NCBI GenBank assembly: GCA_902770045.1
Contig: CACXRO010000004.1
Coordinates: 7,323 to 71,322, forward strand
Length of the DNA stretch: 64,000 bases
From: an uncultured bacterium
GTDB lineage: Bacteria > Verrucomicrobiota > Kiritimatiellia > RFP12 > UBA1067
Direction of reading: 5' to 3'
Made by a program: the position numbers and the translations under genes. Positions 23,665 to 40,210 of the stretch are shown here, piece after piece. A model generated the notes under the pieces. That model did no database searches and was not told the DNA's origin. It was given only the letters and a program-made list of their open reading frames with translations. Within the stretch, counting starts at the first letter, position 1; every line of letters begins with the position of its first letter.

Positions 23665-23696
23665 TTGACTTTTGCGCCAAAATTTTCGTATAATAC
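23665..23696 (+). promoter_or_regulatory. Strong sigma70-type promoter TTGACT-18 nt-TATAAT
   Basis: TTGACT at 23665-23670 and cgTATAATAC with the hexamer at 23689-23694. No ORF with an RBS follows for about 530 nt. Confidence 0.65.
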
Positions 23697-23699
23697 ATT

Positions 23700-24175
23700 G
23701 CATCGCCGTTGCGAGTAAGTTGTTCGTGGCGGAGATGTGAGGGATAAAGCGCAGTTGGGATATGCGCAAGCCGCATGAGCGGCGTTGATCTTTGACATAG
23801 GCCGGAGACCCAGCATCCGGCTACCGAGCGGCAGAGTGTGCAATCACAAGTCTCTGCCGCGACCATCGTCCCGGTAGGGTCACGCGTCCCGCGTGACCGC
23901 CGAGGGCGGTGCCAGCGAGACCGAAAGGCCGTCGCTGGGACGTACGCAACAGCGTATTGAGCTTCTAGAGAAAACCGCTAATTTTCACTGCATGAAGCGA
24001 GATACGATTGCTGTGCTGCGTTGGTAATCCACGCGGCGCACTTTCTATTCATATTTCATGCAAGGCTCTTAGCGGTGCCTCTCTAGAGATGCGAATCAGG
24101 GAGTGCGCCGCTTCAATTGTATAAGGAGGGCGGCATTCCCGGCACGGATTGGAACGCCGCCCTCGTCCTTTTCCG
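23700..24175 (+). ncRNA. Candidate ~470 nt structured RNA or long regulatory leader (unclassified)
   Basis: Starts at the promoter and ends at a terminator-like hairpin. Complementary pairs read directly are listed here. GCGGCAGAG 23828-36 / CTCTGCCGC 23852-60. CGTCCC 23867-72 / GGGACG 23937-42, enclosing three hairpins (GGTCACGC/GCGTGACC, CCGCC/GGCGG, CCAGCGA/TCGCTGG). TCTAGAG+CCGCTAA 23964-81 / TTAGCGG+CTCTAGA 24069-88. TGCATGAA 23989-96 / TTCATGCA 24055-62. Pseudoknot GCGGCGCACT 24033-42 / AGTGCGCCGC 24102-11. Confidence 0.5.
24126..24175 (+). terminator. Intrinsic-terminator-like or attenuator hairpin
   Basis: GAGGGCGGC (24126-34) ... GCCGCCCTC (24156-64), followed by gtccTTTTcc. It lies between the structured RNA and the RBS (AAGGAGG) of the first island gene. 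Confidence 0.45.
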
Positions 24176-24226
24176 TGGAACACAAGGTGGGCTACAAGGG
24201 GAACCCTTTAAGGAGGTAGAAAAATT

Positions 24227-25804
24227 ATGAAGTGCGAAAATTGCGGTGCAGAGATCACCGACAAGATGAAGTTCTGCAGTGAATGCGGTACGCGTGTCCC
24301 AACTGATAAGGAGTGTCCGGCATGCCACACCCGGTGCGCTCTCGCGGCAAAGTTCTGCTCTGAATGCGGACATGATTTTTCAAAACTGGAGGAAATTGAA
24401 GAAGACACAGGCGACGATGACAATGACAGCGAAGAGGACACTTCTTCTAGTGGACACTACTCAGTCATACTGAAAGATTGTGGCGAGGACAAGGGCGCGG
24501 TGCTCAGGGATCTCGTTGCCATGACGGGTAAACGTCTTTGGCCGGACATCTCCGATATGGTAGATAATTTGCCTGCTGTCGTTGCCAAAGGTCTTACCCG
24601 AGACAAGGCAGATCTATATTATGGCGGATTGCTTCTTGATGGGGCTCAGGCCGAGATTGTCGCAGATGAAGATGGAGACGGCGATTCAGACGACGATGAT
24701 TCTTCTCCGGGCGAGCCATACCCGGAGATGGTGGATATCCCCGGACGTAACTTCAAGTTGGGCTGTACTCCGGTCACGCAGGCGCAGTGGGAAGCAGTGA
24801 TGGGGTATAACCCTTCTTATTTCACTTATAAAGGCGCGAACCGTCCAGTGGAGCAGGTCAGCTGGGACGATTGTCAGGAGTTCATCGAAAAGCTGAACGA
24901 GCAGACGGGGATGTGCTTCCGGTTGCCGACACAGAAGGAGTGGGAGTATGCCTGCCGCGCTGGCAGCAAGGGTGACTACGGTCTTGTGGAAGGTGGAGAG
25001 GAAGGCGACATCGACGACATGGGCTGGTATGACGGCAACAGTGACGACGAGACGCATCCCGTCGCGCAGAAACAGCCCAATGCATGGGGGCTCTACGACA
25101 TGCACGGCAACGTGTCGACATGGTGCGCAGACGCGTCCGGCCCGTCGAGCCACGTGGTTTGCGGCGGCGGATTCAACTTTGACGCCGGCAGCTGCACGGC
25201 TACGTATCGGAACGGATGCGAGTCAGATTGTAGCGATAACTGGATTGGTCTTCGCCTTGCGATGGATTGCGACTCAGACACGGACGATGACGAGTCCGAA
25301 GAAGAGGATTCGTCATCGGCCGGGAGCAGTCACAAAAGTCGTACCTGTTCGGTTTTCCTAAAGGATATCGGTAACGACAAAAACGCTGTGATCAGGGAAG
25401 TGCGTAGACTTTTCAACAAGACATTCGGAGAGGCGAAGAATCTGGTGGAAACGAACATTTCACCCATACCTCTTCATCTGGACTGTCTCCGCGAAAAGGC
25501 CGAAGAGATTGCCGCGGCGCTGGAGGCGGTGGGTGCCACCGTTGAGATCTCCGACAAGGACGTAGGGACTGTAACAAGCGGGAACTGCTCGGTCGTTATC
25601 AAGAAGCTCCCATTCATGATGGGGCGTGGAGACAGGATGGGGGTCGCTTGTATAATTGCCGAGGCTGAGGGATGTATGCCAGCCAACGCATGGAAGATGC
25701 TAGACAACCTCCCCTTGACTTTTGCAAAGAACATCTCCCGCGAAGAGGCGGAGGAAATCGCTTCTAAAATTGAGGCGAGAAAGTGCAAGGTCGAAATTGT
25801 CTGA
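24227..25804 (+). CDS. Double zinc-ribbon protein with three ribosomal L7/L12 C-terminal-like domains flanking an FGE/SUMF1 (C-type-lectin-fold) domain
   Basis: N-terminus CENCG..CSECG..CPAC..CSECG. Three segments align to the L12 CTD: SVILKDCGEDKGAVLRDLVAMTG..DMVDNLPAVVAKG..GAQAEIV; SVFLKDIGNDKNAVIREVRRLF..AKNLVE..AEEIAAALEAVGATVEIS; SVVIKK..NLPLTFAKNISREEAEEIASKIEARKCKVEIV. FGE motifs: RPVEQVSWDDCQEF, RLPTQKEWEYACRAG, GWYDGNSDDETHPVAQKQPNAWGLYDMHGNVSTW, IGLRLA. Confidence 0.8.
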   Translation: MKCENCGAEITDKMKFCSECGTRVPTDKECPACHTRCALAAKFCSECGHDFSKLEEIEEDTGDDDNDSEEDTSSSGHYSVILKDCGEDKGAVLRDLVAMTGKRLWPDISDMVDNLPAVVAKGLTRDKADLYYGGLLLDGAQAEIVADEDGDGDSDDDDSSPGEPYPEMVDIPGRNFKLGCTPVTQAQWEAVMGYNPSYFTYKGANRPVEQVSWDDCQEFIEKLNEQTGMCFRLPTQKEWEYACRAGSKGDYGLVEGGEEGDIDDMGWYDGNSDDETHPVAQKQPNAWGLYDMHGNVSTWCADASGPSSHVVCGGGFNFDAGSCTATYRNGCESDCSDNWIGLRLAMDCDSDTDDDESEEEDSSSAGSSHKSRTCSVFLKDIGNDKNAVIREVRRLFNKTFGEAKNLVETNISPIPLHLDCLREKAEEIAAALEAVGATVEISDKDVGTVTSGNCSVVIKKLPFMMGRGDRMGVACIIAEAEGCMPANAWKMLDNLPLTFAKNISREEAEEIASKIEARKCKVEIV

Positions 25805-25810
25805 TGTGTT

Positions 25811-25836
25811 GCCAACTCCGCCCGGCGGGTGCTGGA
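25811..25836 (+). promoter_or_regulatory. Conserved post-stop hairpin motif, copy 1 (CCAACTCCG-CCCGGC-GGGT-GCTGGA)
   Basis: One of three near-identical motifs that each follow a stop codon in the island. Stem CCGGC/GCTGG with one G-T pair. Confidence 0.55.
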
Positions 25837-25870
25837 TGCGGAGGAGGTGACGTGAAAGAAGGGAAAGATT

Positions 25871-26107
25871 ATGTTGGATAACAATCAAGACGGCCCAGAC
25901 GAAAACATACGAATCATGCCGAAGGATGTGTTCGCAAATTATAGTAACTCTGATTTACATCGGATACAGAAAGCGATTATCGATTGGGATGTTATGGTTG
26001 ATAAACATCCTGAACTGGAGAAACTCTACGAGACGTATGGTGCGGATTATGAGAAGTTAAAACGGGACATCATAGATGAACTTAAGCGACGCGCGCTCAG
26101 TTCGTAA
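25871..26107 (+). CDS. Hypothetical small protein (78 aa, helical)
   Basis: GAAAGAAGGGAAAG purine-rich RBS upstream. AT-rich codon usage like its neighbours. No recognisable domain. Confidence 0.5.
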   Translation: MLDNNQDGPDENIRIMPKDVFANYSNSDLHRIQKAIIDWDVMVDKHPELEKLYETYGADYEKLKRDIIDELKRRALSS

Positions 26108-26129
26108 AAAACAAAAGGGAGATCAAGCG

Positions 26130-26390
26130 ATGACTTTTACAGAGTGGTTTGAAAGTCTGGACATTCGTGGCAATATCGATGAGATATTTTGTCTGTATCG
26201 CACGGTTCTAGAACATAGTGACACCTGGGGATATGATGTCAAGGTTACTCCACATAGTTTTGTGGTCTCTCGTTACGACATAGAACCGCACCGATTTACA
26301 GAAAAGACGGCAAGTCAGTTTTGTGACTATCTAGATTCCTTGTTTGAATCTGGGGTCGAGGGAGAACATTATCGGGTTAATGGGAAATGA
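26130..26390 (+). CDS. Hypothetical small protein (86 aa)
   Basis: ATG 26130 preceded by AAAGGGAG. The longer ORF from 26076 would overlap the previous gene. No recognisable domain. Confidence 0.5.
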   Translation: MTFTEWFESLDIRGNIDEIFCLYRTVLEHSDTWGYDVKVTPHSFVVSRYDIEPHRFTEKTASQFCDYLDSLFESGVEGEHYRVNGK

Positions 26391-26431
26391 GGTCCACTGA
26401 TAGTGGTTACCGTGCTGATACGGGCATTTTT

Positions 26432-26457
26432 ACCAACTTCGCCCGGCGGGTGCCGGA
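26432..26457 (+). promoter_or_regulatory. Conserved post-stop hairpin motif, copy 2 (CCAACTTCG-CCCGGC-GGGT-GCCGGA)
   Basis: Stem CCGGC/GCCGG with loop GGGT. Confidence 0.55.
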
Positions 26458-26505
26458 AGCAGGGATGGTGAAAACAAAAAGTAAACACCACAAAGGAAAC
26501 AAAGC

Positions 26506-26793
26506 ATGAAAAGAATTCTTGATGGACATGATTTGACTTATTCTCAAATGAATGGATTGTCTTCTCTTTTCGGCGAGCCTGGACGTGCAATGCCTGTTAC
26601 TAATAATAAGTTAAGAGAAACAGGAATGTCAGAGGATGAGGTGGAGGATCTTGTAAATAAAGGATATTTAGAACTTCTTACCAATGGTGATTATCTTTTG
26701 CCTAGAGATACATGTGGGAATGTTATCATATCTAGACTGACGGAGCGGGGAAACGACGAAAGAATTCGACAAATGAATTCAAGAATGTTTTGA
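26506..26793 (+). CDS. Hypothetical small protein (95 aa)
   Basis: AAAGGAAACAAAGC upstream of the ATG. No recognisable domain. Confidence 0.5.
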   Translation: MKRILDGHDLTYSQMNGLSSLFGEPGRAMPVTNNKLRETGMSEDEVEDLVNKGYLELLTNGDYLLPRDTCGNVIISRLTERGNDERIRQMNSRMF

Positions 26794-26941
26794 TCGCTAA
26801 TCTTGTACAAGGAGGTGCAATTTGACACTTCAATCCAAGGCTGTTCGCGAAACAGATTCTTTACTCAGATTCTTTACTCCGACTGGGGGCATGCAAACAA
26901 AAATATAGAGGCGAAAATCTCTAAAAGAAAGAGGAGTTGGA

Positions 26942-27175
26942 ATGAAATTAGTGTCATACTCATATGAATTAGACGGGCACACACATTGTTTGTATGTTGA
27001 TGAGGATTTCGCGGATTCTCTGTTGCCTCCAGAGGTAAAGACAATTACAGCGGGCCGGACAAAGGCGGCGTGTAGTGGGTCTATCAGGTTTGATCCAAAG
27101 GATAAAGAGTCCCTCCAGAAGAAAGGTTATCTGGACACGGGTCACTACTTCATAGAATCAGAGGCGGATTTATAA
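26942..27175 (+). CDS. Hypothetical small protein (77 aa)
   Basis: AGAGGAG SD 6 nt upstream. No recognisable domain. Confidence 0.5.
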   Translation: MKLVSYSYELDGHTHCLYVDEDFADSLLPPEVKTITAGRTKAACSGSIRFDPKDKESLQKKGYLDTGHYFIESEADL

Positions 27176-27181
27176 TGCTTT

Positions 27182-27207
27182 TCCAACTCCGTTCGGCGAA
27201 TGCCGAA
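27182..27207 (+). promoter_or_regulatory. Conserved post-stop hairpin motif, copy 3 (CCAACTCCG-TTCGGC-GAAT-GCCGAA)
   Basis: Perfect 6 bp stem TTCGGC/GCCGAA. The C->T / G->A changes relative to copies 1-2 are compensatory. Confidence 0.55.
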
Positions 27208-27254
27208 TAAGGAGACTAATCTTACAACGACAATAAAAAAAGAAAGAGGTTGGT

Positions 27255-29234
27255 ATGAGCAAGACGAAAACATGCCCTAAATGTGGTGGAAGCGGTATGC
27301 TTGACCATTGTGGACGATGCAATGGGTCTGGCAAGGTGACGTGTAGCACGTGCGGCGGATCAGGAGAAATAAAAGATAGCTGCAGAGCCTGCAATGGGAC
27401 TGGTAAGATTACGAAAACAAGGCTGAAAAATTGCTCTCAGTGTCATGGGGCGGGACAAATATATTTAGACACATATTTAGACCATCGTTGGATCAGCTGT
27501 GGGAAATGCGGTGGAAGCGGACAGGTGGAGGATGAGTACGATGAAGTCTGCCCAAATTGTAATGGAACTGGAGATTTTGGCTCGGGACGAGGATGCTCGG
27601 ACTGCAATGGAACTGGCGAAGTAATCTGTCCAAGCTGTGGTGGCAATGCGCATAAACCGTCCACCTGTGATAGATGTGACGGTTCAGGAGAAGTTGAAGT
27701 ATATACATCTTCCTCATCCTCTTCGTCTGAAGAAGGGAAATGGTGGGAATATGTCCTTGGGCTTCTTATATTGATTGCGCTTTGCTGGGGTGGATGGCGC
27801 GGTTACAAATGGCTATTTGGGGAGCGCGGCGGTAGCGAAGTCATCACGGAAGCCGAGATTATGGAGAAGTGGCAGGAGCATCTCGAAAAGAGGCGTGATG
27901 CTTTTGATGATGGCTTGCCCGAAAAGGAGATCGAAGCAAAGGGGCTAAAAAACTACACTTGGGACGAGTGGCAGGAGAAGTTCAAGAAGGAGCATGAAGC
28001 ACCGGCGAAGCAAGAGGGTTCTGACAAAACAAGGGCGCAGGAAATTGGCGAGCAGGCACTTTCCACGGCAAAAGATCTTGGCGACAAGGCGAAAGGGTTG
28101 TGGCAAAGTATCACAGCCAAGGAAGAGAAGGATCCAGAAGCCGAACTGAAAAGACTCAATGCGCGTCTTGCGGAGTTGGAGGGTCGCAGCAATAGTGGTG
28201 AGACGACTGATGTGGAGAACATCGGAGAAAAATATAGAGAGCATCAACGGAAGCGAAGCGAATTGCTTATGAGCGGGCTTACTGATAGGCAACTTGACGC
28301 GATGGGGTATGCTGACTATACTTACAATGGGTTTAAAAAGAACTACAAGAATATAAAATACAAGACACTGGAAGAGATTCGGCAGGACAGTGAGTCTTCT
28401 GCAAGGCCTGTTGTGGTTCCAGAGAAGACAGCGGAGCCAAAAGATGCAACGTCGAGCACAACGGCTGAGGCGGTAGCGAGGGCGAAGGTGGCTGCCGAGG
28501 ACAAGTCCAAGGCGGAGGCAGAGGCGAGGGCCAAGGCCGAGGCAGAGGCAAAACGACTTGCTGAGAAGTTGGCGCGCAAGGAAGCCGAAGAGAAGGCACG
28601 GGCCGAAGAGCAGGCAAGGGCGAAGAAAAAGGCAGAAGCCAAGGCTAAGGCTGAGGCAGAGGCGAGGGCTAGAGCAGAAGCCGAGGCAAAACGACTTGCT
28701 GAAGAATTGGCGCGCAAGGAAGCCGAAGAGAAGGCGCGGGCCAGAGAGGAAGCACGTGCAAAAATCCAGGCGGAAGATAGGGCTAAAGCTGAAGCTGAGG
28801 CGAAAGCTCGTGCCACGGCGGAGGCTATCGCAAAGGCGGAAGTAAATGCGGATGCCTCTGTCGAACCTGAAGGTTCTGCAGTTGGACAGCAAGACGGTGA
28901 TATGCATAAAGCATCAAAGGATTCGAAAGGTATACGTATCGTAGTCCAGGGAAAGGGCAAGACGAAGGATGCTGCGGTGCGCTGGGCAATTCGTGATGCG
29001 GTGTGGAAAACCGTCGGCAAATGGGTGGATTCAAAGGCTCGGATTCAGGAGAATCATGACAAGGTTGTTGCCCAGGTGAAGACAATCACCGAAGCCGACG
29101 TTGCCAAGTTTGAGGTGATGGACACTCAGATGCAGGACGGCGGTTTTGTCGTCAAGGTGAGAGTCTCTGTCTCGAAGAAGAAGATCGCGCCGAAGTTTGC
29201 GGAAATCTTCCCTGATGTGTTTGGCAATGAATAA
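27255..29234 (+). CDS. Protein with ten DnaJ-type CxxCxGxG zinc-finger motifs, one TM helix, a long Ala/Glu/Lys coiled coil and a C-terminal alpha/beta domain
   Basis: [78 protein letters not shown]. Poly-Ser, then [21 protein letters not shown]. TolA-like [18 protein letters not shown] repeats. The C-terminus [29 protein letters not shown].. is tentatively LPP20-like. Confidence 0.75.
28512..28787 (+). repeat. Tandem ~138 nt duplication inside the coiled-coil coding region
   Basis: [38 protein letters not shown].. is repeated as [38 protein letters not shown]... The copies start at 28512 and 28650. Confidence 0.85.
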
Positions 29235-29268
29235 TAAAAGTAGTGAATGAGAAAAGGAGTTGAATAAA

Positions 29269-29676
29269 ATGAAAAAGCTGATTAAAGGTGTTGTACTCAT
29301 TGTCGCGGCGATTCTGATGCTCGGCATCGTTGGATGCGGAGACGGAGATTCGGCGGACAGCATCGCGGAAAAGTGTGTTGATTGCTTAAAGGAGGCAGAC
29401 TTCGACGGCATGCGGCAGATGTCAACGGGCGGCATGATTCAGTGGATAGACGTTGCCGAACGGAAATACGACGAAATCGCCAGATTGCTAGGCGAGAAGA
29501 CTGCGTCCAAGTTCAGGGAGACATACGACGAATTGAAATACGAGCTTGGTGGCGTCCCTGACGGTGACACCAAGGTGATTGTGCCAGTCAGGATCAACGG
29601 ACAGGATACGCCGATGACTCTCATCAAGCTGGGCGGCAAGTGGAGAATCGAGAAGTTCGACTTCCCGATCATATAG
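29269..29676 (+). CDS. Small lipoprotein (DUF4878-like)
   Basis: AAGGAG SD 9 nt upstream. Lipobox LGIVGCG. The ending KLGGKWRIEKFDF is typical of small NTF2/cystatin-like lipoproteins. Confidence 0.65.
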   Translation: MKKLIKGVVLIVAAILMLGIVGCGDGDSADSIAEKCVDCLKEADFDGMRQMSTGGMIQWIDVAERKYDEIARLLGEKTASKFRETYDELKYELGGVPDGDTKVIVPVRINGQDTPMTLIKLGGKWRIEKFDFPII

Positions 29677-29690
29677 GCCATTTCTGCATT

Positions 29691-29728
29691 GCGCGGGGAC
29701 AGTTCCTTTGAACGGGACTGTCCTGCGC
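29691..29728 (+). terminator. Terminator-like stem-loop after the lipoprotein gene
   Basis: GCGCGGGGACAGT ... ACTGTCCTGCGC (about 11 bp, one bulge). No clear U-tract. Confidence 0.35.
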
Positions 29729-29731
29729 ATT

Positions 29732-29764
29732 GTTCAAAAGTTGAAAAGGTATATTTGAAAGGGG
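29732..29764. repeat. GTTGAAAG-type octamer repeats (internal island copy)
   Basis: gttcaaaagttgaaaaggtatatttgaaagggg. Same orientation as the right-flank copy. Confidence 0.6.
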
Positions 29765-29778
29765 ATAAGGTTCGATAG

Positions 29779-31575
29779 TTGGCAAGCAAATGCGACAAAT
29801 GCGGGAAACTCGTTCCTGACGGTGAGGCGTCTTGTCCCCATTGCGGAACGAAGATCGAAATGGACAATCTTGCAGTAGGTTGTCTTTTCGTGCTTGGTTT
29901 GATTGGCCTTCTCTATCTTATTTTTAAACATTGGCAAGTGATCATTCTTGTTGCCGCTGTTTTGCTTGTTGCGGGGATATGCTATGCTGTCATAAAAAGC
30001 ACTAAAAGTGAAGACGGCAATGATGAAAACCCAGGGGAAGGTGCGGATAAGGAAGGTCAAAGCACAGAGCCCGATAAGGTTGACGAAAGCGGCTCGTCGG
30101 CATGGCCTGAATTCGCTTCCGAGGTTGTAGAGGCGTCTGAAAGCCTGTATTCGGCCTTGTTGAAGATGTCGGGCGACGCGCCTTTTATCGCTACATTGGA
30201 AGCGACTGACTGGTTGGATTTGGGCGGCGAATGGTCGATGAACAACCGTTTGTGCGCACTTGCGCAAATCGACATGTTCAACGTCCTGAGGTTGCTCGGG
30301 CATGATGACATCGAGGAGAGCAAGGAGGGCTTGGCTTGCGCCTACATCGTGACCCGACTGAGTGCGGCAGCCGGTCAGAACATTGATACCTTCACTGCTG
30401 GATACAAGACCAATGAGTCCATGGCAAGGCAATTGGCTAAGATTGCTGAAGAGACAAGGCGTGTTCTCAGTCCGCTGATGGAGAGATGGCGTTCTTCCGT
30501 TCCAAGCGAGAAGAGTTTCTATTCTGCGGTGGTTACATTCTTTGTCGCGAAATGCAATCAGCCGGAGTTGTCGCTAAACTATTTGCGTTCGCTATATCAA
30601 TGGGCTTCTGTGATTGCGAAGGCCGATGGTTCGGTCAGTGATGCCGAGGCAAAGAGCCTTGCGGCAATCATGAAAGCGCATGATGCGGCTAAATCGCCTG
30701 TCGGGAGAACAAGTGTTTCGGGCGGCGAGACGGGCGCGACAGAGAAATGCCAGGCGACGTCTTTTGCGCGAGACGAAGATCCATTCCAGAAACTTGAAGC
30801 GTTGATTGGACTCGCGCCGGTAAAGAACGAGATTATGGCGCTTGCGAATTTCGTTAAGATACAAAAGCAGCGAGTCGATGCCGGCATGAAGGCGGTGCCT
30901 GTTTCATACCATTGTGTTTTTACGGGGAATCCAGGAACCGGGAAGACCACGGTCGCCCGTATCGTCGCCGGGATATACAGGGATTTGGGCGTGCTTGCAA
31001 AAGGCCATCTTGTGGAGACGGATAGGTCGGGACTTGTTGCGGAATATGTCGGTCAGACAGCCGTCAAGACCAACAAAGTGATTGACAATGCGATAGATGG
31101 CGTCCTTTTTATAGACGAAGCATATACGCTTGCTCAAGCCGGGGGGAATGATTTTGGGATGGAGGCTATCGCCACTTTGCTCAAACGCATGGAAGACGAC
31201 CGCTCCAGGCTCGTTGTGATCCTCGCCGGTTATTCTGGCGAGATGGAAACATTCATAGAAGCCAATCCCGGGTTGCGGTCGCGATTCAACAGGTACATAG
31301 ATTTCCCCGACTATAGTGCGGAAGAACTTGTTCAGATATTCATGTCTTTGGCTGAATCCAACGAGTATGACTGCGACGATAGTCTTGCATCGGAGATTCA
31401 CAAGGTTATGGTTAAAACTATCAGGCAGGAAGACGAGAATTTTGGCAATGCCAGATTTGTCCGGAACCTTTTCGAGAAAAGCATCCAGAAGCAAGCGATC
31501 CGTCTTTCAAAGGTTGCGCCCATCACGAACAAGATGCTTCGAACACTTACTGCCGATGATTTACCCTCAGTATAA
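29779..31575 (+). CDS. Zinc-ribbon / 2-TM / TerB-like / AAA+ ATPase (CbbX-SpoVK-type)
   Basis: CDKCG..CPHCG. Two TM helices. [30 protein letters not shown] is a TerB-like motif. AAA+ motifs: Walker [10 protein letters not shown], Walker [27 protein letters not shown] start. Confidence 0.8.
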
Positions 31576-31736
31576 TGAGCAGCAGCTCCAGGGGTTCGCG
31601 CGCATTTGCGTCAACCCGTAGTTCTTCCTGTCGAAAAAGTACAATAGGCAAAAAGGGACAGACCCACCTATATATGTTTTACTGTATATGCTTGACGGCG
31701 GGGAGGCGATGTAAAAGTTCCGCGGCAGATAAACAG

Positions 31737-31904: not shown

Positions 31905-34900
31905 TCAAGCCCGCGCCGCGTGCCACTCCTGCAGCGAGCGGGGCGGCACGGCTTTCGACGAGGCGGTTGCCGCCATGCCGCGCACCGCCTCGGCGAAGCC
32001 GGCGAGCGTCGTCGTGACCGGAACACCCGCGAGCGTCGCTGCCGTGCGTATCTTGACGCTGTCGTGCGCGGCGCTTTCGCCGTCCTCGCGCGTGTTGACG
32101 ATCCACTTCACCTTGCCGCGCCGGATGAGGTCGAGCGTGTTGGGGCTGCCGAGCGGAATCTTGTAGAGGGCGTTCGATTCGATGCCGGCTTTCCAGAGCG
32201 CCGTGGAAGTGCCGCGGGTCGCCCAGATCTCGTAGCCGAGCTTGTCCAGCGTCTTGGCGAGCTCAACGACCTCGGCCTTGTCTTCGTCGCGGATGCAGAG
32301 GACGATTCCGCCATGCCCCGGCAGCGGCAGCGGGCTCCCCGCCGCGATCTGGCTCTTGTAGTAGGCCGTCGCCGCGTCCGCGCCGAACGCCATCACCTCG
32401 CCGGTCGACTTCATCTCCGGCGTCAGCGTGATGTCCGCGCCCGGGAACTTCACGAACGGGAACACCGCCTCCTTGGCGCAGAAATATGGTTTGGTAGTTT
32501 GGTGGTTAGGTGGTTTGGTGGTTTGGTGGTTAGGTGGTTGGGTGGTTAGGTGGTTGGGTGGTTGGGTGTGTAGCCGCTCTCCGACCATGCACCTTGCGGC
32601 GGTGCCGGCGAGCGACCAGCCGACCGCCTTCGAGACAAATGGCACGGTGCGCGAGGCGCGCGGGTTCACTTCGATCATCCACACCTCGCCGTCCTTGACC
32701 GCCAGCTGGATGTTCATGAGCCCGCAGACGTTGAGCTTCTCCGCGAAAGTGCGCGCGATGCGCTCGACCTCGGCGATCGTCTTCGCCGAGAGCGACACCG
32801 GCGGCGTGACCGCGGCGGCGTCGCCGGAGTGGCATCCCGCAGCCTCGACGTGCTCGAGGATCGCGCCGACGACGCAGGTCTTGCCGTCCGCGACGCAGTC
32901 GACGTCGAGCTCGATTGCGTGGGTGAGGAACTTGTCGATGAGGATGGGGCGGCCTTCCGAGATCTTTACCGCCGCCTCGACGTATTCCCGGAGCCGGTCC
33001 TCGTGGTAGACGATCGCCATGCCGCGTCCGCCGAGGACGAAGCTCGGGCGCACGAGGATGGGATAGCCGATCTCCCCGGCGATCTTCAGGGCGTCCTCGA
33101 CGGAGTGGGCGATTCCGCTCGGCGGCTGCTTCACGCCCACCTCGTTGACGAGGGCGCGGAAGAAGTCGCGGTCCTCGGCGAGCGCGATGTCGTGGGGCGA
33201 CGTTCCGAGGACGTTCACGCCTGCCTCGGCGAGGCGCTCGGCGAGGTTGAGCGGGGTCTGGCCGCCGAACTGGACGATCGCGCCATCGCACCGCTCGCGC
33301 TCGTAGATCTCCATCACGTCCTCGAAGGTGAGCGGCTCGAAGTAGAGCCTGTCGGAGGTGTCGTAGTCGGTCGAGACGGTCTCGGGGTTGGAGTTGACCA
33401 TCACCACCTCGATGCCCATCTTGCGGAGCGCGAAAGCCGCGTGGCAGCAGCACCAGTCGAACTCGATTCCCTGGCCGATGCGGTTCGGCCCGCCGCCGAG
33501 GACCATGATTTTATGTTTCTGCCGCAAAGTACGCAAAGAGCGCAAAGGACGTTCTGTCTTTGCGTTCTCTGCGTTCTCTGCGGCTAACGAATAATATGAA
33601 TAATAATACGGCGTTTTGGCTTCGAATTCGCCGGCGCAGGTGTCGACTTCGCCGAACTCGGGGCGGATGCCAAGGGCAAGGCGATTCTTCCGCACCGTAA
33701 TCTCGTCGGTGCCGATCGCCGCGGCGATCTCCTTGTCGCTGAAGCCGAACGCCTTCGCCTGACGAAGGACTTCGGGCCTTAGCATATTTGTGTTTTTGCC
33801 GCAAAGATCGCAAAGGTCGCAAAGTGGTTCAGGGTGAGTGGAGTCTGAACTTGTCTTTGCGTTCTCTGCGTTCTTTGCGGCTAAAAAATGGCCACCAAGA
33901 TATTCCCTGAAAGCTTCGATTTCATCGAGCTCGCGCTTGAACCACGGGTCGAAGCCCGACGCGTCGTGTCCCGCGAGCGGCGCCTCCAGCGACCTGACCG
34001 CCTTCAGGTATGCCTGCTTGAAGGTGCGGCCGATGGCCATCGCCTCGCCGACGGACTTCATCTGGGTGCCGAGGCGCCTGTCGGCGCCCGGGAACTTCTC
34101 GAAGGTGAAGCGCGGCACTTTTACGACCACGTAGTCGAGCGCGGGCTCGAAGCAGGTCGGAGTCACCTGGGTTATGTCGTTCTTGAGCTCGTCGAGCGTG
34201 TAGCCGACGGCGAGGAGCGCGGCGATCTTGGCGATCGGGAAGCCAGTCGCCTTCGACGCGAGCGCGGACGAGCGCGAGACGCGCGGGTTCATCTCGATGA
34301 TGATGCGCCGGCCGGTCTTCGGGTTGACCGCCCACTGCACGTTGGAGCCGCCGGTCTCGATGCCAATCTTCTCGAGAACGCGGATGGAGTCGTCGCGCAT
34401 CGCCTGGTATTCGCGGTCGGTCAGCGTCTGGATCGGCGCGACGGTGATCGAGTCGCCGGTGTGGACGCCCATCGGATCCATGTTCTCGATGGAGCAGACG
34501 ATCACGGCGTTCCCCGCCTTGTCGCGCATCACCTCCATTTCGAATTCCTTCCAGCCGATGAGCGACTCCTCGATCAGCACCTCGTGGTTGAGCGACGCCT
34601 CCAGGCCGCGCGAGACGATCTCGCGGAACTCGCCCTCGTCGTGCGCGATGCCACCGCCGGTGCCGCCGAGGGTGAAGCCGGGGCGGATGATGAGCGGCCA
34701 CGAGCCGATCTCCGCCGCGATCCGCTGCGCCTCCTCCGGCGAATGGGCGCTCCCCGACTTCGGCATGTCGAGTCCGAGCTCCGACATGGCGGCCTTGAAG
34801 AGGTTGCGGTCCTCGGCGCGCGCGATGGCCTCGGCGTTCGCGCCGATCATCTCGACGCCGCATTCGGCGAGGACGCCGGACTTCGCCAGCCCCGTTGCCA

Positions 34901-35189: not shown

Positions 35190-36922
35190 TTCCGCTTCCT
35201 GCCTTTCAGCGCCGCCGCGACGAGGCCGAGGAAGAGCGGGTGCGGGGCGGTGGGGCGGCTCTTGAACTCGGGGTGAAACTGGCCGGCGATGAAGTACGGG
35301 TGCGACGGCAGTTCGACGATCTCCACGAGCTTGCCGTCGGGCGAAAGGCCGCTTACCTTGAGCCCGGCCGCCTCGAGCCTTTCGCACGCCTCGCTGTCGT
35401 AGGCGAGCTCGTAGCGGTGGCGGTGTCGCTCGGAGATTGTCAATGTTCCATTTTTAGCCACAAAGGACACAGAGTTCACAGAGTCTTTGTGCTCTTTGTG
35501 TTCTTTGTGGCTATAGAGTTTATCGGCGAGAGTGCCGCGCTTGATGACGCAGGGATAGGCGCCGAGGCGCATGGTGCCGCCTTTCTGGGTGATGCCGCGC
35601 TGTTCCTCCATGAGGTCGATGACCGGATGCGTTGTGTGCTCGTCGAACTCCGTCGAGTTGGCGTCCGCCCATCCGAGCACATCGCGGGCGTATTCGATCA
35701 CCGTGCACTGCATGCCAAGGCAGATGCCAAGGAAGGGGATCTTGTGCTCGCGCGCGTACTTGATCGCCGCGATCTTGCCCTCGACGCCTCTTGATCCAAA
35801 GCCCCCCGGAACCAGAATGCCGTCGATGTTTGATAATTTTTTGCCACAAAGATCACAAAGGCCACAAAGTCTTTTCCCGCTCTTTGCGTTCTCTGTGTTC
35901 TTTGTGGCTAAAAGTTCTTCCGATTCGATCGGCACGACCACCACCTTGCAGTCGTTCGCCATGCCGGCGTGCTGCAGCGCCTCGTGGATCGACTTGTAGG
36001 CGTCGCGGATGGCGATGTACTTGCCGACGAGCGCGATGCGGCAGTGCTTCTTCGGCTGCGTCGCCTTCCTGACGAGCGTGTCCCAGACGGTGTGCTTCAC
36101 CGGCCAGATGTCGAGGTGGAGCTGCCGCAGGACCTGCTCGTCGAGTCCCTGCTTCCTGAGCTCCCGCGGCACCGCATAGACCGAGTCGGTCACGTCCTGC
36201 TCCTCGATCACGCACTCGGGCCTCACGTTGCAGAAGAGGGCCAGCTTTTGCTTGTGCTCCTCGGGAATCGGCATCTCCGTGCGGCAGACGAGGATGTCGG
36301 GGATGATGCCGATGTTGCGGAGCTGTCCCACCGAGTGCTGCGACGGCTTGGTCTTGAGCTCGCCCGCGGCCTTCAGGTAGGGGACGAGCGTCAGGTGCAC
36401 GAAGCAGGTGTTCTCGATGCCCTCCTCGAAGCGGAACTGCCGCGCCGCCTCGAGGAAGGGGAGCGACTCGATGTCGCCGGAGACGCCTCCGATCTCGCAG
36501 AGGACGATGTCGCAGTCGTGGTTGCCGGCGTCGTGGATCGCCGCCTTGATCTCGTCGGTGATGTGCGGGACGACCTGCACCGTACCGCCGAGGTACCCGC
36601 CCGCGCGCTCGCGCGCGAGGACGGCGGAGTAGATGCGGCCCGAGGTGTAGTTGGACGCCTTGGTGCAGGTGACGCCGGCGAAGCGCTCGTAGTGGCCGAG
36701 GTCGAGGTCGGTCTCCGCGCCGTCGTCGGTCACGAACACCTCGCCGTGCTGGTAGGGCGACATAGTGCCGGGGTCGACGTTGAGGTACGGGTCGAGCTTC
36801 TGCATGAAGACCTTGTAGCCGCGCGACTTGAGAAGCAGCGCGAGCGAAGCCGAGGTGATTCCCTTGCCGAGCGAGCTCACGACGCCGCCTGTGATGAACA
36901 CGTATTTGACTTGCTTTTTCAT
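35186..36922 (-). CDS. pyrG: CTP synthase (with two in-frame repeat insertions)
   Basis: [55 protein letters not shown]. Confidence 0.93.
35455..35513. repeat. CACAAAG nonamer hairpin element in frame in pyrG
   Basis: tagccacaaaggacacagagttcacagag-tctttgtgctctttgtgttctttgtggcta. Translated as [22 protein letters not shown]. Confidence 0.9.
35841..35910. repeat. CACAAAG/CGCAAAG nonamer hairpin element in frame in pyrG
   Basis: ttgccacaaagatcacaaaggccacaaag-tcttttcccg-ctctttgcgttctctgtgttctttgtggcta. Translated as [24 protein letters not shown]. Confidence 0.9.
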
Positions 36923-36933
36923 GGCTGTTGTTT

Positions 36934-36991
36934 TTGCCGCAGAGAACGCAAAGAGCGCAAAGGCTTTGCGTACTATGCGTTCTTTGCGGCT
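36934..36991. repeat. CGCAAAG nonamer hairpin spanning the carA stop and the carA-pyrG spacer
   Basis: ttgccgcagagaacgcaaagagcgcaaagg-ctttgcgtactatgcgttctttgcggc. The last carA residues AAKNA and its TAG stop are encoded by the right arm. Confidence 0.9.
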
Positions 36992-38169
36992 TTTATCATC
37001 GATTTGAATTGGTTAAATAGGTAGTTGGAGTCGTGCGGACCGGGGCAGGCCTCGGGATGGTACTGCACCGAGAACGCCGGGAGCGTCTTGTGCCGGATAC
37101 CCTCGATCGACCCGTCGTTGAGGTTGACGTGCGTGACTTCGAGGCAGTCCGGCACCGACTCCGGGATGACGGCGAAGTTGTGGTTCTGGCTGGTGATCTC
37201 CACCTTGCCGGTCTCAAGGTTCTTCACCGGATGGTTGCAGCCGTGGTGGCCGAACTTGAGCCTGCCGGTCTTCGCGCCGCAGGCAAGCGAGAGCAGCTGA
37301 TGCCCCAGGCAGATGCCCATGATGGGGATTGGTTTGGTGGTTAGGTGGTTAGGTGGTTGGGTGGTGCTGGTATGCGCACTCAAACGCTCAAACCCCAACA
37401 ACTTTCTGATGTTCTCGATGGCATAAGTCACTGCCGCCGGGTCGGCGGGGCCATTCGAGAGGAACACGCCGTCGGGGGAGAGAGCAAGCACCTCCTCGGC
37501 CGGCGTCTTCGCCGGCACGACCGTGACCTTCGCCCACGACGCCAGCGACCTGAGGATGTTCAGCTTGACGCCGAAGTCATAGCAGATGATCCATGGTTCG
37601 TGGTTCGTGGCTCGTGGCTCGGGTGTGAAATCATACGCCTTTTCGCAAGTCACTTTTGCCGCGTAGTCTTGGCCGTCGAGACCGGGCCATTCGTTGGACT
37701 TGGCCATCGCAGCTTCCTCGCTTAGAGACGCGTCAACGCAGAGATACGCCTTCCGGTTGCCGTGCTCGCGGATGTGCAGCGTCAGCGCACGGGTGTCCAC
37801 GCCGTAGATGCCCGGGACGCCGTTCTCGGCGAGATATTCGCCGAGGCTCTTTTCGCTGCGCCAGTTGCTGGGTTCAGTGAGGTCGCCGATGACGAGCCCC
37901 GACAGAAAAAGTCCCCGGGACTCGACGTCCTCGGGGTTGATGCCGTAGTTGCCGACTTCGGCGGTGGTGAGGGTGACGAACTGTCCGGCGTAGGAGGGGT
38001 CGGTCAGGATCTCCTGGTAGCCGCTCATCCCGGTGTTGAAGACGACCTCGCCGAGCGCATCTTTCTTCGCGCCGAACGCGACGCCGTGGAATACGGCGCC
38101 ATCGTCCAGCGCAAGGAACGCCTTCCGCTCCCGCTCGTTCTTCCATTTCTCCTCGTAGCTCATAGCCAT
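36973..38169 (-). CDS. carA: Carbamoyl-phosphate synthase small (glutaminase) subunit
   Basis: GEVVFNTGMSGYQEILTDPSYAGQ..GICLGHQLL..HGCNHPV..SQNHNF..VQYHPE. Confidence 0.93.
   Translation of the reverse strand: MAMSYEEKWKNERERKAFLALDDGAVFHGVAFGAKKDALGEVVFNTGMSGYQEILTDPSYAGQFVTLTTAEVGNYGINPEDVESRGLFLSGLVIGDLTEPSNWRSEKSLGEYLAENGVPGIYGVDTRALTLHIREHGNRKAYLCVDASLSEEAAMAKSNEWPGLDGQDYAAKVTCEKAYDFTPEPRATNHEPWIICYDFGVKLNILRSLASWAKVTVVPAKTPAEEVLALSPDGVFLSNGPADPAAVTYAIENIRKLLGFERLSAHTSTTQPPNHLTTKPIPIMGICLGHQLLSLACGAKTGRLKFGHHGCNHPVKNLETGKVEITSQNHNFAVIPESVPDCLEVTHVNLNDGSIEGIRHKTLPAFSVQYHPEACPGPHDSNYLFNQFKSMIKAAKNA
37331..37365. repeat. GGTTAGGT octamer array in frame in carA
   Basis: ggtttggtggttaggtggttaggtggttgggtggt. 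Translated as [12 protein letters not shown], immediately before the conserved IMGICLGHQ. Confidence 0.9.
37595..37621. repeat. GGTTCGTG/GGCTCGTG octamer array in frame in carA
   Basis: ggttcgtggttcgtggctcgtggctcg. Translated as EPRATNHEP. Confidence 0.85.
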
Positions 38170-38182
38170 AGTTCGGTTTTAG

Positions 38183-38217
38183 CCTTTGTCTTTGCGGTCT
38201 ATGCGTTCTTTGCGGCT
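38183..38217. repeat. CGCAAAG-family half element in the purF-carA spacer
   Basis: cctttgtctttgcggtctatgcgttctttgcggct. Confidence 0.8.
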
Positions 38218-38224
38218 GACAACA

Positions 38225-40171
38225 CTAGTAAGACCTTTCATTTATTTTGTCAAGATAGTTCTTGATCGCCTGGTGCAGGACCTTGTAGCCTCCTGGCGTC
38301 GGGTAGTCGCCGGTGAAGTACCAGTCGCCGAATTCGTGGTTCGTGGTTCGTGGTTCGTGGTTCGTGGCTGGGCGGTTAGGTGGTTGCAGGCATTGGCGAA
38401 GGTTGTCGACGGTCTGGTAGACGACCTTGACTTCCGCCTTCATGCCGGGCGGCGTGAGGAGACGCGCGATTTCCGCGCAGTGCTCCTCTTCGGTGAAGCG
38501 GGCATAGAGTTCGGCGAGAGGGTTTTCTTTGACAGGATTTACAGGATTAACAGGATTGGGATTGGGGGGCTGGGGGGTGTCTCCAGATAATCCTGAAAAT
38601 CTTGTTAATCCTGTCAAAAGATTTTCGGCTTCCTTGCCGAGCAGGTTCATGAGCGCCTTGAAGGCGACGAGTTCGCCGAGGGTGGACATGTCGATGCCGT
38701 AGCAGTCGGGATAGCGGATCGGCGGCGCGGAGGAGGCGACGACGATCCGCTTCGGCCCCAGCCGGTCCAGCATCGGCAGGATGGCGTTCTTCATCGTGTT
38801 GCCGCGGACGATCGAGTCGTCCAGCACCACGAGCGTGTCCCGGCCGGGGCGCACCAGTCCGTAGGTGACGTCGTAGACGTGCTTGTAGAACTCGCGTCGC
38901 GCCGCGGCGTCGGCGATGAAGGTGCGGAACTTCGCGTCCTTCACCGCAATTTCCCCGAAGCGGGGAAATTGGTTAGGCGGTTGGGTGGTTAGGTGGTTAG
39001 GTGACTGCTGAGCTGAACTGTCCAACCATTTTTTGAATAATTCTTCCAGCAGCCCATGGAAGGCGATGCGGGCGGAGTTGGGGATGTAGGAGAAGAAGAT
39101 GTCTTCGATCGGCGCATCCGCCGCGGCGAGGATCTGCGGCACCAGCGCCGCGCCGAGCGCCTTGCGCTCGCGGTGGATGTCGGCGTCGTTGGCGCGGGAA
39201 AAGTAGATGCGCTCGAAGGTGCAGGGGCGGGGTGGTGGTTGGGTGGCTGTGGGAGGATTTTCAAACCGCACTTCGCCGTCAGGAGAAACGACGAGCGTTT
39301 GGCCGGGCGGGAGTTCCTTCACCGCCTCCGGCGGCACGTCGAAGGCGGCCTGGATCGCGGGGCGCTCGCTGGCTACTGCCACCACGTTGTCGTCGAGGTA
39401 GTAGAAGCCGGGGCGGATGCCGCACGGGTCGCGCGTCGCGAAGGCCCAGCCGTCGCCGGTCGTGCCGCATAGCGTCCAGGCGCCGTCGGCTTTGGCGAGC
39501 GCGGAGGAGAGTGCTCTGGCAATCGGAGTCTCACACGGAGGCACAGAGGCACGGAGCCTTCCGTCCTCTGAGTCTCTGTGGCTCTGCGTGAGTTCGTGGG
39601 CGATCAGTTCGCAGATGAGGTAGCCGTCGGACCGGCTGGTGGGGAAGGAGCCGCGGCGTTGGTAGTCGTCGAAGAGCTCGCGCGCGTTGGTGAGGTTGAA
39701 GTTGCCGGCGAGGAGGACAGTGTGGGCGAGTTCGCTCGATTCGTGGATGAACGGATGGCAGAACGCCACCTCGTTCTTTCCGAAGGTGGCGTAGCGGAGG
39801 TGGCCGAGGAATATCCTTTCTTGATTTTTGCCACAAAGATCACAAAGGCCACAAAGGCTATCTCCCTCATTTTTGTGTTCTATGTGTTCTTTGTGGCTAA
39901 ATCTTCTCCCGATGGCGGCGAGTATGTCCGCAAGCGGCGTCGCCGAAGCCGATTTTGCGATCCAGTACGGCGGTTCTCCCGGATTGGGGTTGTTGGAGAG
40001 GATCGCCGCGCCGGCGCCGTCCTGGCCGCGGTTGTGCTGCTTCTCCATGAGGAGCGAGAGCTTCGTTCCGCCATAATCGCCCGCGGCGACGGTGGTCCCG
40101 CGCAGGACCACCATCGCCACGGCGCATTCGTGCTTTAGTTCATCTGACATTTTGTCCGACTGCCATAGCAC
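38225..40171 (-). CDS. purF: Amidophosphoribosyltransferase (648 aa, expanded by at least 5 in-frame repeat insertions)
   Basis: N-terminal nucleophile region HECAVAMV..HNRGQDGAG..GHLRYATFG. PRT motif LVVLDDSIVRGNT. The start may be ATG 40150 instead. Confidence 0.88.
   Translation of the reverse strand: MLWQSDKMSDELKHECAVAMVVLRGTTVAAGDYGGTKLSLLMEKQHNRGQDGAGAAILSNNPNPGEPPYWIAKSASATPLADILAAIGRRFSHKEHIEHKNEGDSLCGLCDLCGKNQERIFLGHLRYATFGKNEVAFCHPFIHESSELAHTVLLAGNFNLTNARELFDDYQRRGSFPTSRSDGYLICELIAHELTQSHRDSEDGRLRASVPPCETPIARALSSALAKADGAWTLCGTTGDGWAFATRDPCGIRPGFYYLDDNVVAVASERPAIQAAFDVPPEAVKELPPGQTLVVSPDGEVRFENPPTATQPPPRPCTFERIYFSRANDADIHRERKALGAALVPQILAAADAPIEDIFFSYIPNSARIAFHGLLEELFKKWLDSSAQQSPNHLTTQPPNQFPRFGEIAVKDAKFRTFIADAAARREFYKHVYDVTYGLVRPGRDTLVVLDDSIVRGNTMKNAILPMLDRLGPKRIVVASSAPPIRYPDCYGIDMSTLGELVAFKALMNLLGKEAENLLTGLTRFSGLSGDTPQPPNPNPVNPVNPVKENPLAELYARFTEEEHCAEIARLLTPPGMKAEVKVVYQTVDNLRQCLQPPNRPATNHEPRTTNHEFGDWYFTGDYPTPGGYKVLHQAIKNYLDKINERSY
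38333..38386. repeat. GGTTCGTG octamer x5 plus GGTTAGGT units in frame near the purF C-terminus
   Basis: Translated as QPPNRPATNHEPRTTNHE. Confidence 0.9.
38528..38618. repeat. AATCCTGTT nonamer hairpin element in frame in purF
   Basis: tttgacaggatttacaggattaacaggatt-(loop)-aatcctgaaaatcttgttaatcctgtcaaa. Translated as LTGLTRFSGLSGDTPQPPNPNPVNPVNPVKE. Confidence 0.9.
38971..39003. repeat. GGTTAGGT octamer array in frame in purF
   Basis: ggttaggcggttgggtggttaggtggttaggtg. Translated as [12 protein letters not shown]. Confidence 0.9.
39533..39590. repeat. CAGAGGC-family hairpin element in frame in purF
   Basis: cacacggaggcacagaggcacggag-ccttc-cgtcctctgagtctctgtggctctgcgtg. Translated as TQSHRDSEDGRLRASVPPCE. 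Confidence 0.85.
39828..39899. repeat. CACAAAG nonamer hairpin element in frame in purF
   Basis: ttgccacaaagatcacaaaggccacaaagg-(loop)-tttgtgttctatgtgttctttgtggcta. Translated as [25 protein letters not shown]. Confidence 0.9.
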
Positions 40172-40210
40172 TAAACCACCAAACTACCTAACAACCTAAC
40201 CACCTAACCA
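40172..40210. repeat. CCTAACC/CCAAACC octamer tract in the glnN-purF spacer
   Basis: ctaaaccaccaaactacctaacaacctaaccacctaacc. Opposite orientation, relative to transcription, compared with the intragenic copies. Confidence 0.8.

Follow-up and report, generated by a model that had tools for sequence, protein, structure and literature searches.

The gene at positions 24227-25804 of the 64-kb window analyzed here (the whole 64,000-nucleotide stretch of contig CACXRO010000004.1, to which all positions refer) encodes a 525-amino-acid (aa) protein that combines a double zinc ribbon, three domains with the fold of ribosomal protein L7/L12's C-terminal domain (CTD) and one domain with the fold of the formylglycine-generating enzyme (FGE). 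The open reading frame (ORF) is intact and starts with ATG. The modules are ordered as double zinc ribbon, L12 copy 1, FGE-fold domain, L12 copy 2 and L12 copy 3, with acidic linkers of 17-23 residues between the four folded modules that follow the zinc ribbon. Sequence comparisons show that it belongs, as one allele, to a modular family of rumen and gut Lentisphaerae that recombines and varies between strains, and the main value of the protein is as a pointer to a large class of non-ribosomal L12 arrays found on immune-type effectors.

An earlier note on this DNA had described three L7/L12 CTDs, one before and two after an FGE-type domain, and Pfam, AlphaFold2 and Foldseek agree on this arrangement. 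The Pfam model of the L12 C-terminal domain (Ribosomal_L12, PF00542) matches with 88 bits over three stretches. When the copies were scanned singly (gathering score, GA, 25.9 bits), copy 2 (aa 375-441) scored highest (53.6 bits, E 3e-14), copy 1 (approximately aa 78-143) barely exceeded the GA (27.1 bits, E 5e-6), and copy 3 matched in its second half alone, below the GA (20.8 bits, E 5e-4). Given the weak match of copy 3, its L12 fold was settled by structure prediction. AlphaFold2 places a beta-alpha-alpha-beta-alpha-beta topology in aa 78-146, 373-443 and 454-524 (pLDDT about 70-87), and the topology is complete in copy 3 (pLDDT 80-87). The best Foldseek matches in the PDB are without exception L7/L12 CTDs (1CTF, 8YEQ; TM 0.90, rmsd 1.1 Å, 33-38% identity). 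A ClpS-like adaptor was rejected, as both Foldseek and Pfam rank L12 above ClpS. Copy 2 is also recognizable by sequence against PDB L12 chains (E 1e-5) and is 51% identical to the CTD of P0143, a genuine L12 with an N-terminal domain. Pairwise identity among the three copies is 27-30% and no DNA repeats were found between them; they are therefore old duplicates, and a recent internal duplication was rejected.

The N-terminus starts straight at the zinc ribbon; as the earlier note had held, the L12 N-terminal dimerization and L10-binding domain is absent, with no Pfam match to PF16320. The L12 equivalog model TIGR00855 reaches 70 bits summed over the three copies, against a cut-off of 84.4. 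On these two grounds a genuine or paralogous ribosomal L12 was rejected. The rplJ-rplL context is likewise absent, the neighbors being island genes, a cytidine deaminase gene and carB. The double zinc ribbon and acidic linkers were also read correctly at the outset: Pfam DZR matches at aa 3-48 with 39.1 bits (GA 27.3), all eight zinc-ribbon cysteines (C3, C6, C17, C20, C30, C33, C44 and C47) are invariant across the family, and Asp and Glu make up 43-55% of the linkers at aa 54-75, 149-165 and 348-370. A hydropathy scan of the protein gave no transmembrane segments, and a cytoplasmic location is predicted. The same protein, or relatives 74-96% identical to it, was found on several independent assemblies, so the gene is no assembly artefact.

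Table 1. Positions of the modules of the 525-aa protein and of further features in the window.
Feature	Position	Strand or orientation	Remarks
AAGGAGG ribosome-binding site	24210-24216	+	10 nt 5' of ATG; seen in sequence
525-aa ORF	24227-25804	+	pI 4.4; 54% GC vs ~67% in flanking genome
Double zinc ribbon, aa 2-53	24230-24385	+	Pfam DZR 39.1 bits, Zn_Ribbon_1 39 bits
Acidic/serine linker 1, aa 54-75	24386-24451	+	55% Asp+Glu; site of module gain/loss
L12-CTD-like copy 1, aa 76-148	24452-24670	+	Optional module; Pfam 27.1 bits; contact face largely replaced
Acidic linker 2, aa 149-165	24671-24721	+	Asp+Glu-rich
FGE-fold (C-type-lectin-like, 'FGS') domain, TvpA/PvdO type	24701-25267	+	Predicted non-catalytic; optional module; Pfam 105 bits
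Acidic/serine linker 3, aa 348-370	25268-25336	+	Also a module junction
L12-CTD copy 2, aa 371-443	25337-25555	+	Constant core; most ribosomal-like; Pfam 53.6 bits
L12-CTD-like copy 3, aa 452-525	25580-25801	+	Constant core; first half strongly diverged; contact face lost
Low-GC island, 45-54% GC	24098-31579	.	525-aa gene first; flanks ~67% GC
Zinc ribbon + transmembrane segments + AAA/AAA_lid_6 ATPase	29779-31575	+	Last island gene; Pfam
8-nt-unit arrays	32471-32582, 37314-37377, 38357-38396, 38962-39017	as written
8-nt-unit arrays	40156-40219, 44098-44161, 46501-46564, 47739-47802	reverse complement
Palindromic element copies	33514-33600, 33793-33897, 35450-35527, 35838-35924, 36920-36991, 38191-38232, 39825-39913		

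The surface through which ribosomal L12 contacts translation factors lies in helices 4-5 and is reported (Helgstrand et al. 2007; Kothe et al. 2004) to comprise E. coli K65, V66, I69, K70, R73, L80, K81, E82 and K84. At these positions, from K65 to K84, the residues are K N I R R F G E K in copy 2, K G L R V L P D S in copy 1 and R M A C A P A N W in copy 3. Copy 2 thus retains K65, I69, R73, E82 and K84, with K70 replaced by R. The earlier note had suggested that the protein could be a decoy, tether or sensor for translational GTPases and had named loss of the contact residues in advance as speaking against it; such loss was found for the larger part of the surface in copies 1 and 3, whereas the surface is partly kept in copy 2. 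For this reason copy 2 would be the only credible factor binder of the three.

The central domain matches Pfam FGE-sulfatase (PF03781) over aa 159-345 with 105 bits (GA 23.3). By sequence, its nearest solved relative is TvpA (2Y3C; E 1e-19), a variable protein of a Treponema denticola diversity-generating retroelement (DGR), followed by PvdO and then CarF (named 'CotH' in the PDB sequence file), with true FGEs ranking far lower. The first full-length model was poor over this part because the alignment was shallow; a second model built from a deeper alignment reached pLDDT 86 for the domain, and Foldseek again placed 2Y3C first (E 3e-15, TM 0.79), ahead of PvdO, CarF and true FGEs. The catalytic copper-binding cysteine pair of FGE is C336/C341 in the human enzyme. 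In an alignment with T. curvata FGE anchored on the GG(S/G)F motif, which is weak and low-scoring, the first of these cysteines aligns with Phe and the second is kept, an assignment that is moderately secure; close relatives have in common a single-Cys consensus, GGxWxxxAxxC. Because its nearest relatives are TvpA and PvdO and one catalytic cysteine is apparently missing, the domain is probably a lectin-fold binding module, of the kind that Kaur et al. (PMC7159879) name 'FGS', and no enzyme. The FGE/SUMF1 assignment of the earlier note therefore stands for the fold, while a TvpA/PvdO-like binding fold is predicted in place of an FGE enzyme. A catalytic FGE was rejected as unlikely, given the seemingly incomplete cysteine pair and the non-FGE members among which the nearest relatives fall.

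The allele family and L12 arrays beyond it

The same architecture recurs in approximately 12 clusters at 74-100% identity. The sole match from a named genome is an uncultured rumen Lentisphaerae bacterium; the others come from metagenomes, at least one of them labelled gut. The constant core of the family consists of the zinc ribbon, copy 2 and copy 3; the linkers are the places where copy 1, the FGE domain and further modules come in or drop out. Thus, P0012 differs in having no FGE domain, a frequent minimal form (P0124 and the like, about 240-262 aa) carries the zinc ribbon and copies 2 and 3 without copy 1, and extra modules are present in P0013, P0022, P0036, P0145 and P0146. The DNA of one minimal form (L010) aligns to window positions 24098-24456 and 25266-25850, which places the breakpoints inside the acidic linkers.

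Codon analysis shows strong purifying selection on every folded module, with ratios of non-synonymous to synonymous substitution (dN/dS) of 0.01-0.14: 0.07 for the zinc ribbon, 0.08-0.14 for copy 1, 0.02-0.05 for the FGE-fold domain, 0.09-0.10 for copy 2 and 0.08-0.09 for copy 3. The linkers are relaxed (0.16-1.3; linker 1 0.5-1.3). Copies 1 and 3 thus appear, from their sequences, to be conserved yet re-specialized. Within one gene pair, dS is 0.22 for the zinc ribbon and copy 3, whereas the other three modules (copy 1, FGE domain, copy 2) each exceed 1, and this strong unevenness between modules indicates mosaic recombination.

Rearranged forms were observed among the relatives. In one gut metagenome lineage (L015 2554-4165, L016 1239-2850) the gene is split into two adjacent ORFs, one of 208 aa with the zinc ribbon and L12 copy 1, the other of 322-333 aa with FGE and L12. 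Two more distant relatives (L002 5439-18550, L005 2609-18925) have the gene within a tandem array of paralogues. These share the zinc-ribbon head, the stretch GDKNVIAGDV, another zinc finger and a helical or TPR-like region, and their C-termini vary among Peptidase_C25, multi-zinc-ribbon, L12+FGE, FGE (1284 aa), Lcl_C and beta-helix modules. The ORF after the 1284-aa FGE gene opens with the tail of an L12 copy 3, hinting at a fusion broken by a frameshift.

A profile built from all three copies was searched against 1.84 billion representative proteins (cut-off E <= 1e-3) and matched 829 representative clusters. Among 144 further representatives listed, 128 carry 2-8 L12-like domains, and the array is C-terminal in 106 of these 128. 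In a subset of 105, PF00542 is present throughout and the L12 N-terminal domain in two. With the class defined by at least two PF00542 domains and no PF16320, a definition that the 525-aa protein fits, tandem L12-CTD arrays without the L10-binding domain appear to be widespread and barely described; a literature search found no paper on L12 arrays as such, nor on L12 with TIR.

The partners of these arrays include TIR (P0189), caspase (P0218), PNP_UDP with pentapeptide repeats (P0203), MACPF (P0193) and KAP NTPase (P0251) domains, as well as dynamin-type GTPases (P0196, P0229), LRV/HEAT repeats and zinc ribbons. In P0239, a Ser/Thr kinase is joined to an FGE-fold domain without the catalytic cysteine and to two canonical L12 CTDs, with no transmembrane segment. 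Domains 2/3 of EF-Tu are fused to L12 CTDs in P0194 and P0274, the matched regions being without the G domain; P0194 has a signal-peptide-like N-terminus. Most arrays retain the canonical VIKxVRxxTGLGLKEAKxLVE motif, with helix 4-5 positions at near-ribosomal frequencies (K65, I69, K70, R73 and K84 each in 64-73% of domains, L80 in 83%), a motif from which the Lentisphaerae copies have diverged. The multi-zinc-ribbon heads of another lineage are followed at the C-terminus by L12, Sel1, ankyrin, leucine-rich-repeat (LRR_5) or FGE modules as alternatives, and one of these proteins bears the name 'ribosomal protein L7/L12' in its source; P0375, also of another lineage, combines zinc ribbons with FGE. 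Nothing informative came from the gene neighborhoods of two L12-containing proteins in other lineages.

Proposed role and alternatives

We tentatively propose that the 525-aa protein is a non-enzymatic adaptor, built as beads on acidic strings, which may act as a tether or sensor linking a ligand to the translation-factor pool in a conflict setting. The zinc-ribbon head would anchor the protein to a partner, the lectin-fold domain and the re-specialized copies 1 and 3 would bind specific ligands, and copy 2 would transiently bind the G domains of translational GTPases in a stalk-like manner. A recognized ligand would thereby be linked to the translation-factor pool, and the conflict in question would be one with phages or mobile elements, not a housekeeping process. 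Such a setting would fit the variable cargo of the island, which includes FRG/PDC-S15 and an AbiEi-like winged helix-turn-helix, and the published use of L12/ClpS insertions and FGS binding domains in conflict systems (PMC7159879). The tether or sensor idea for GTPases is plausible for copy 2 only; the canonical motif in the wider arrays and the fusions with EF-Tu domains 2/3 may be taken as indirect support for a GTPase link.

Several observations weigh against this proposal. PADLOC gave no match for the protein itself, which leaves the defense context circumstantial, and the protein carries no effector domain. The AAA ATPase recurs downstream of the gene in close relatives only, and no partner gene is kept across the whole family. 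The family is limited to one narrow clade, and for that reason covariation and phyletic tests are weak. Even copy 2 is without V66, L80 and K81, while in copies 1 and 3 the reported contact residues are largely lost. Conservation of the helix 4-5 motif could, moreover, reflect folding alone.

The main alternative, which we rate almost as high, is a polymorphic binding protein of a generic kind, unconnected with translation, whose L12 beads serve only as compact protein-protein, oligomerization or spacer modules. The working part would then be the lectin-fold domain together with the zinc-ribbon head, for example as an intracellular receptor for an invader molecule or glycan. Copies 1 and 3, lacking the factor-contact face, would suit such a protein, as would the interchangeability of L12, Sel1, Ank, LRR_5 and FGE behind zinc-ribbon heads elsewhere and the neighboring L002/L005 paralogues, which have the head in common but end in different C-termini (FGE, beta-helix, Peptidase_C25). 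The L12/ClpS domain has also been described as 'multimerizing' (Kaur et al. 2020, PMC7159879). However, copy 2 and the wider class retain the canonical helix 4-5 motif at near-ribosomal frequencies, L12 fusions with EF-Tu domains 2/3 exist, and it is the L12 pair, and not the FGE domain, that the family keeps constant.

The strong form of the earlier note's idea, in which the three L12 copies jointly act as a multivalent sponge or decoy that captures EF-Tu, EF-G, IF2 and RF3, is quite improbable: three L12 folds on flexible linkers do resemble the multi-copy stalk, but nearly all contact residues are replaced in copies 1 and 3, and many alleles do without copy 1. We regard as very improbable a surrogate stalk, in which ribosome docking would fall to the zinc ribbon instead of an L10-binding domain and the beads would add to or alter factor recruitment. 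Zinc ribbons are frequent in ribosomal proteins, which counts in its favor, as does the report of phage bL12-domain proteins in E. coli ribosome fractions (PMC6375957). Against it, nothing connects the DZR domain with ribosomes, the gene is part of a variable mobile island and of no ribosomal operon, and the optional lectin-fold module is hard to accommodate.

An active formylglycine-generating or related oxidative enzyme that serves the many Lentisphaerae sulfatases, with the L12 beads as accessories, is extremely unlikely. The strong Pfam FGE-sulfatase match and the radical-SAM/SPASM genes in the islands of some relatives would fit it, but the nearest relatives TvpA, PvdO and CarF are non-FGE members, the first catalytic cysteine aligns with Phe (in a weak alignment), many alleles are without the domain, and no sulfatase gene was seen in the island. 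As TvpA is a DGR target, a template repeat and a DGR reverse transcriptase were looked for: the repeat search and blastn (word size 7) gave no template repeat of 25112-25276, either across the 64-kb window or across nine related loci (L001-L009), and no DGR reverse-transcriptase motif was found in the same sequences. A DGR variable target with a hypermutated C-terminal part of the FGE-fold domain was rejected for these sequences and is barely credible, even with TvpA as the best structural relative and approximately ninefold more non-synonymous divergence in the variable-repeat-equivalent region than in the domain core (one comparison), given that this region is nearly identical among close alleles.

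Beyond the tether or sensor proposed for the 525-aa protein, tandem L12-CTD arrays at large might serve bacterial conflict proteins widely as a sensor or bait, a free-standing stalk mimic controlling the attached effectors, a reading that we consider rather unlikely. Such an array could hold GTPases by avidity and report their modification, depletion or hijacking by phages; or it could be an integrated decoy for invader proteins that attack the stalk. The Lentisphaerae protein would then be a diversifying member without an effector, in which a translation-surveillance module is coupled to a lectin-fold receptor.

The L12 CTD is a universal landing pad for translational GTPases, and a large off-ribosome class of arrays, often behind immune-type effectors, suggests that cells or mobile elements watch or manipulate the translation-factor pool through a stalk mimic. 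If true, this would be a new sensing principle, akin to the integrated decoys of plant nucleotide-binding leucine-rich-repeat receptors. Abortive-infection systems centred on EF-Tu are known (Lit/Gol, Doc), and stalk-mimic sensing would connect there. The 525-aa protein would illustrate how such proteins diversify, through shuffling at acidic linkers, re-specialized copies and pairing with a lectin-fold receptor. If the L12 fold is merely a generic bead, the outcome is a modest correction of annotation for proteins that pipelines call 'ribosomal protein L7/L12' or 'formylglycine-generating enzyme'.

The island and other features of the window

The DNA common to the related loci begins at 24098 and stops at 31579, with interior cargo that differs between strains, and the 525-aa gene heads this mobile island. 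The flanking genes vary as well: cytidine deaminase and carB in the window versus hisB and an AAA_14 gene elsewhere. The AAA/AAA_lid_6 ATPase gene at the far end is 95% identical at the nucleotide level to L001, L011 and L012; in L002-L006, which are more distant, gene calls over the 10 kb downstream included no such AAA gene. Its ATPase is of the CbbX/SpoVK type, with weak, generic IetA/TRIP13 matches in the defense-system scan, and is the only NTPase of the island; no vWA domain was found in the 525-aa protein or the island. A known defense system was rejected on the PADLOC result for the 525-aa protein and the weakness of these matches. The island has no virion genes, its PHROGs matches being generic only, and tblastn of copies 2 and 3 against 50,697 phage records gave no match, so that a prophage origin is unsupported.

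The island interior in the window contains four small ORFs, one with a weak match to an AbiEi-like winged helix-turn-helix, a DnaJ-type zinc-finger membrane protein and a lipoprotein, whereas the interiors in relatives contain an FRG protein, two radical-SAM enzymes and an amidohydrolase. The membrane protein (659 aa, 27255-29234, +) has approximately eight DnaJ-type CXXCXGXG zinc-finger units, a transmembrane segment, a C-terminal globular domain and an Ala/Glu/Lys coiled coil, for which a 138-nt tandem repeat at 28463-28738 codes. The lipoprotein gene (138 aa) follows it, and like pairs (514 or 457 aa plus 135 aa) occur in the islands of relatives. The FRG-domain protein (L010 8033-8971, with equivalents in L011, L012, L015 and L016) matches the PADLOC candidate PDC-S15 (E 3e-30); 3' of its gene lie the genes for the two radical-SAM enzymes, one with a SPASM domain, and for the amidohydrolase.

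Upstream of the 525-aa ORF, by approximately 530 nt, a near-consensus sigma-70-like promoter was noted at 23665-23694 (+; TTGACT-18-TATAAT, 11/12 matches), outside the DNA common to the related loci. The region at 23.8-24.1 kb is, judged by eye, GC-rich and possibly structured; an Rfam scan of the window reported one tRNA only and had no match there.

A Doc-type Fic protein is encoded at 61054-61995 (+) in a second low-GC patch (60-64 kb), with the motif HGFSDGNKR and a RhuM-like N-terminus, and a macro-domain protein lies nearby at 62578-63192. The earlier note had linked the Fic gene at 61054 to the 525-aa protein through translation factors. This functional link was rejected as coincidental: the two genes are 35 kb apart in separate low-GC patches, and the gene calls for those related loci whose gene content was listed include no Fic/Doc gene.

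An 8-nt unit (TGGTTAGG/TGGTTTGG) forms short arrays at at least eight sites, one of which lies inside the carB ORF and is read in frame. A palindromic element of approximately 60-90 nt (TTTTTGCCACAAAG...CTTTGTGGCTAAA), resembling repetitive extragenic palindromes (REP) or miniature inverted-repeat transposable elements (MITE), is distributed around carB, and two of its copies are apparently in frame within the 1160-aa carB ORF, giving peptides of the form ...AENAENAKT...

Comparison with known systems

Ribosomal bL12 and the 525-aa protein share the CTD fold, present here in three copies (TM 0.90 to 1CTF; copy 2 33-38% identical to PDB L12 chains), and both carry their domains on flexible linkers, as with the stalk hinge. 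In contrast, the linkers of the 525-aa protein are acidic, whereas those of bL12 are rich in Ala, Gly and Pro; the three copies lie in one chain with no dimerization and L10-binding domain and no ribosomal operon, and the contact face is partly changed in copy 2 and, in copies 1 and 3, changed for the most part.

Phage bL12 domains, which are about 30-40% identical to cellular ones, occur in polypeptides of up to 724 aa, may be present or absent among homologues, are reported to retain the contact residues for EF-G, EF-Tu and uL11, and have been proposed as interfaces for translation factors (Mizuno et al. 2019, PMC6375957). Similarly, the 525-aa protein holds L12 CTDs in a larger polypeptide and copy 1 is variably present among its alleles, and a Foldseek search of viral structures returned a bL12-CTD protein of a crAss-like phage as the top match. 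Here, however, the gene lies in an island of a bacterial chromosome, and three copies are combined with a zinc ribbon and an FGE fold.

In NTP-dependent conflict systems, L12/ClpS insertions and FGS (FGE-sulfatase) binding domains have both been described, the two not together in one polypeptide (Kaur et al. 2020, PMC7159879). These systems resemble the 525-aa protein in using L12-fold and FGE-fold domains as non-catalytic modules of variable, modular proteins, and differ from it in that no vWA, MoxR, STAND or GAP1 core is found in or beside it. A survey of accessory domains in cyanobacterial orthocaspases lists FGE-sulfatase in 39 proteins and Ribosomal_L12 in one (PMC8283722). TvpA (2Y3C) and PvdO, the best matches of the central domain by sequence and structure, are likewise FGE-fold proteins of which none generates formylglycine; unlike TvpA, the domain has no DGR machinery or template repeat nearby, measures only about 190 aa and so is the shorter of the two, and has L12 folds on either side.

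A further comparison is with the tandem L12-CTD arrays, to which the literature makes passing reference only, as for the one orthocaspase above. Many of these stand behind an N-terminal effector (TIR, caspase, PNP_UDP, MACPF, KAP NTPase), which the 525-aa protein lacks. In common with it, they contain at least two L12 CTDs without the N-terminal domain, usually at the C-terminus, and they have been combined independently with zinc ribbons (P0224, P0186) and with an FGE-fold domain (P0239).

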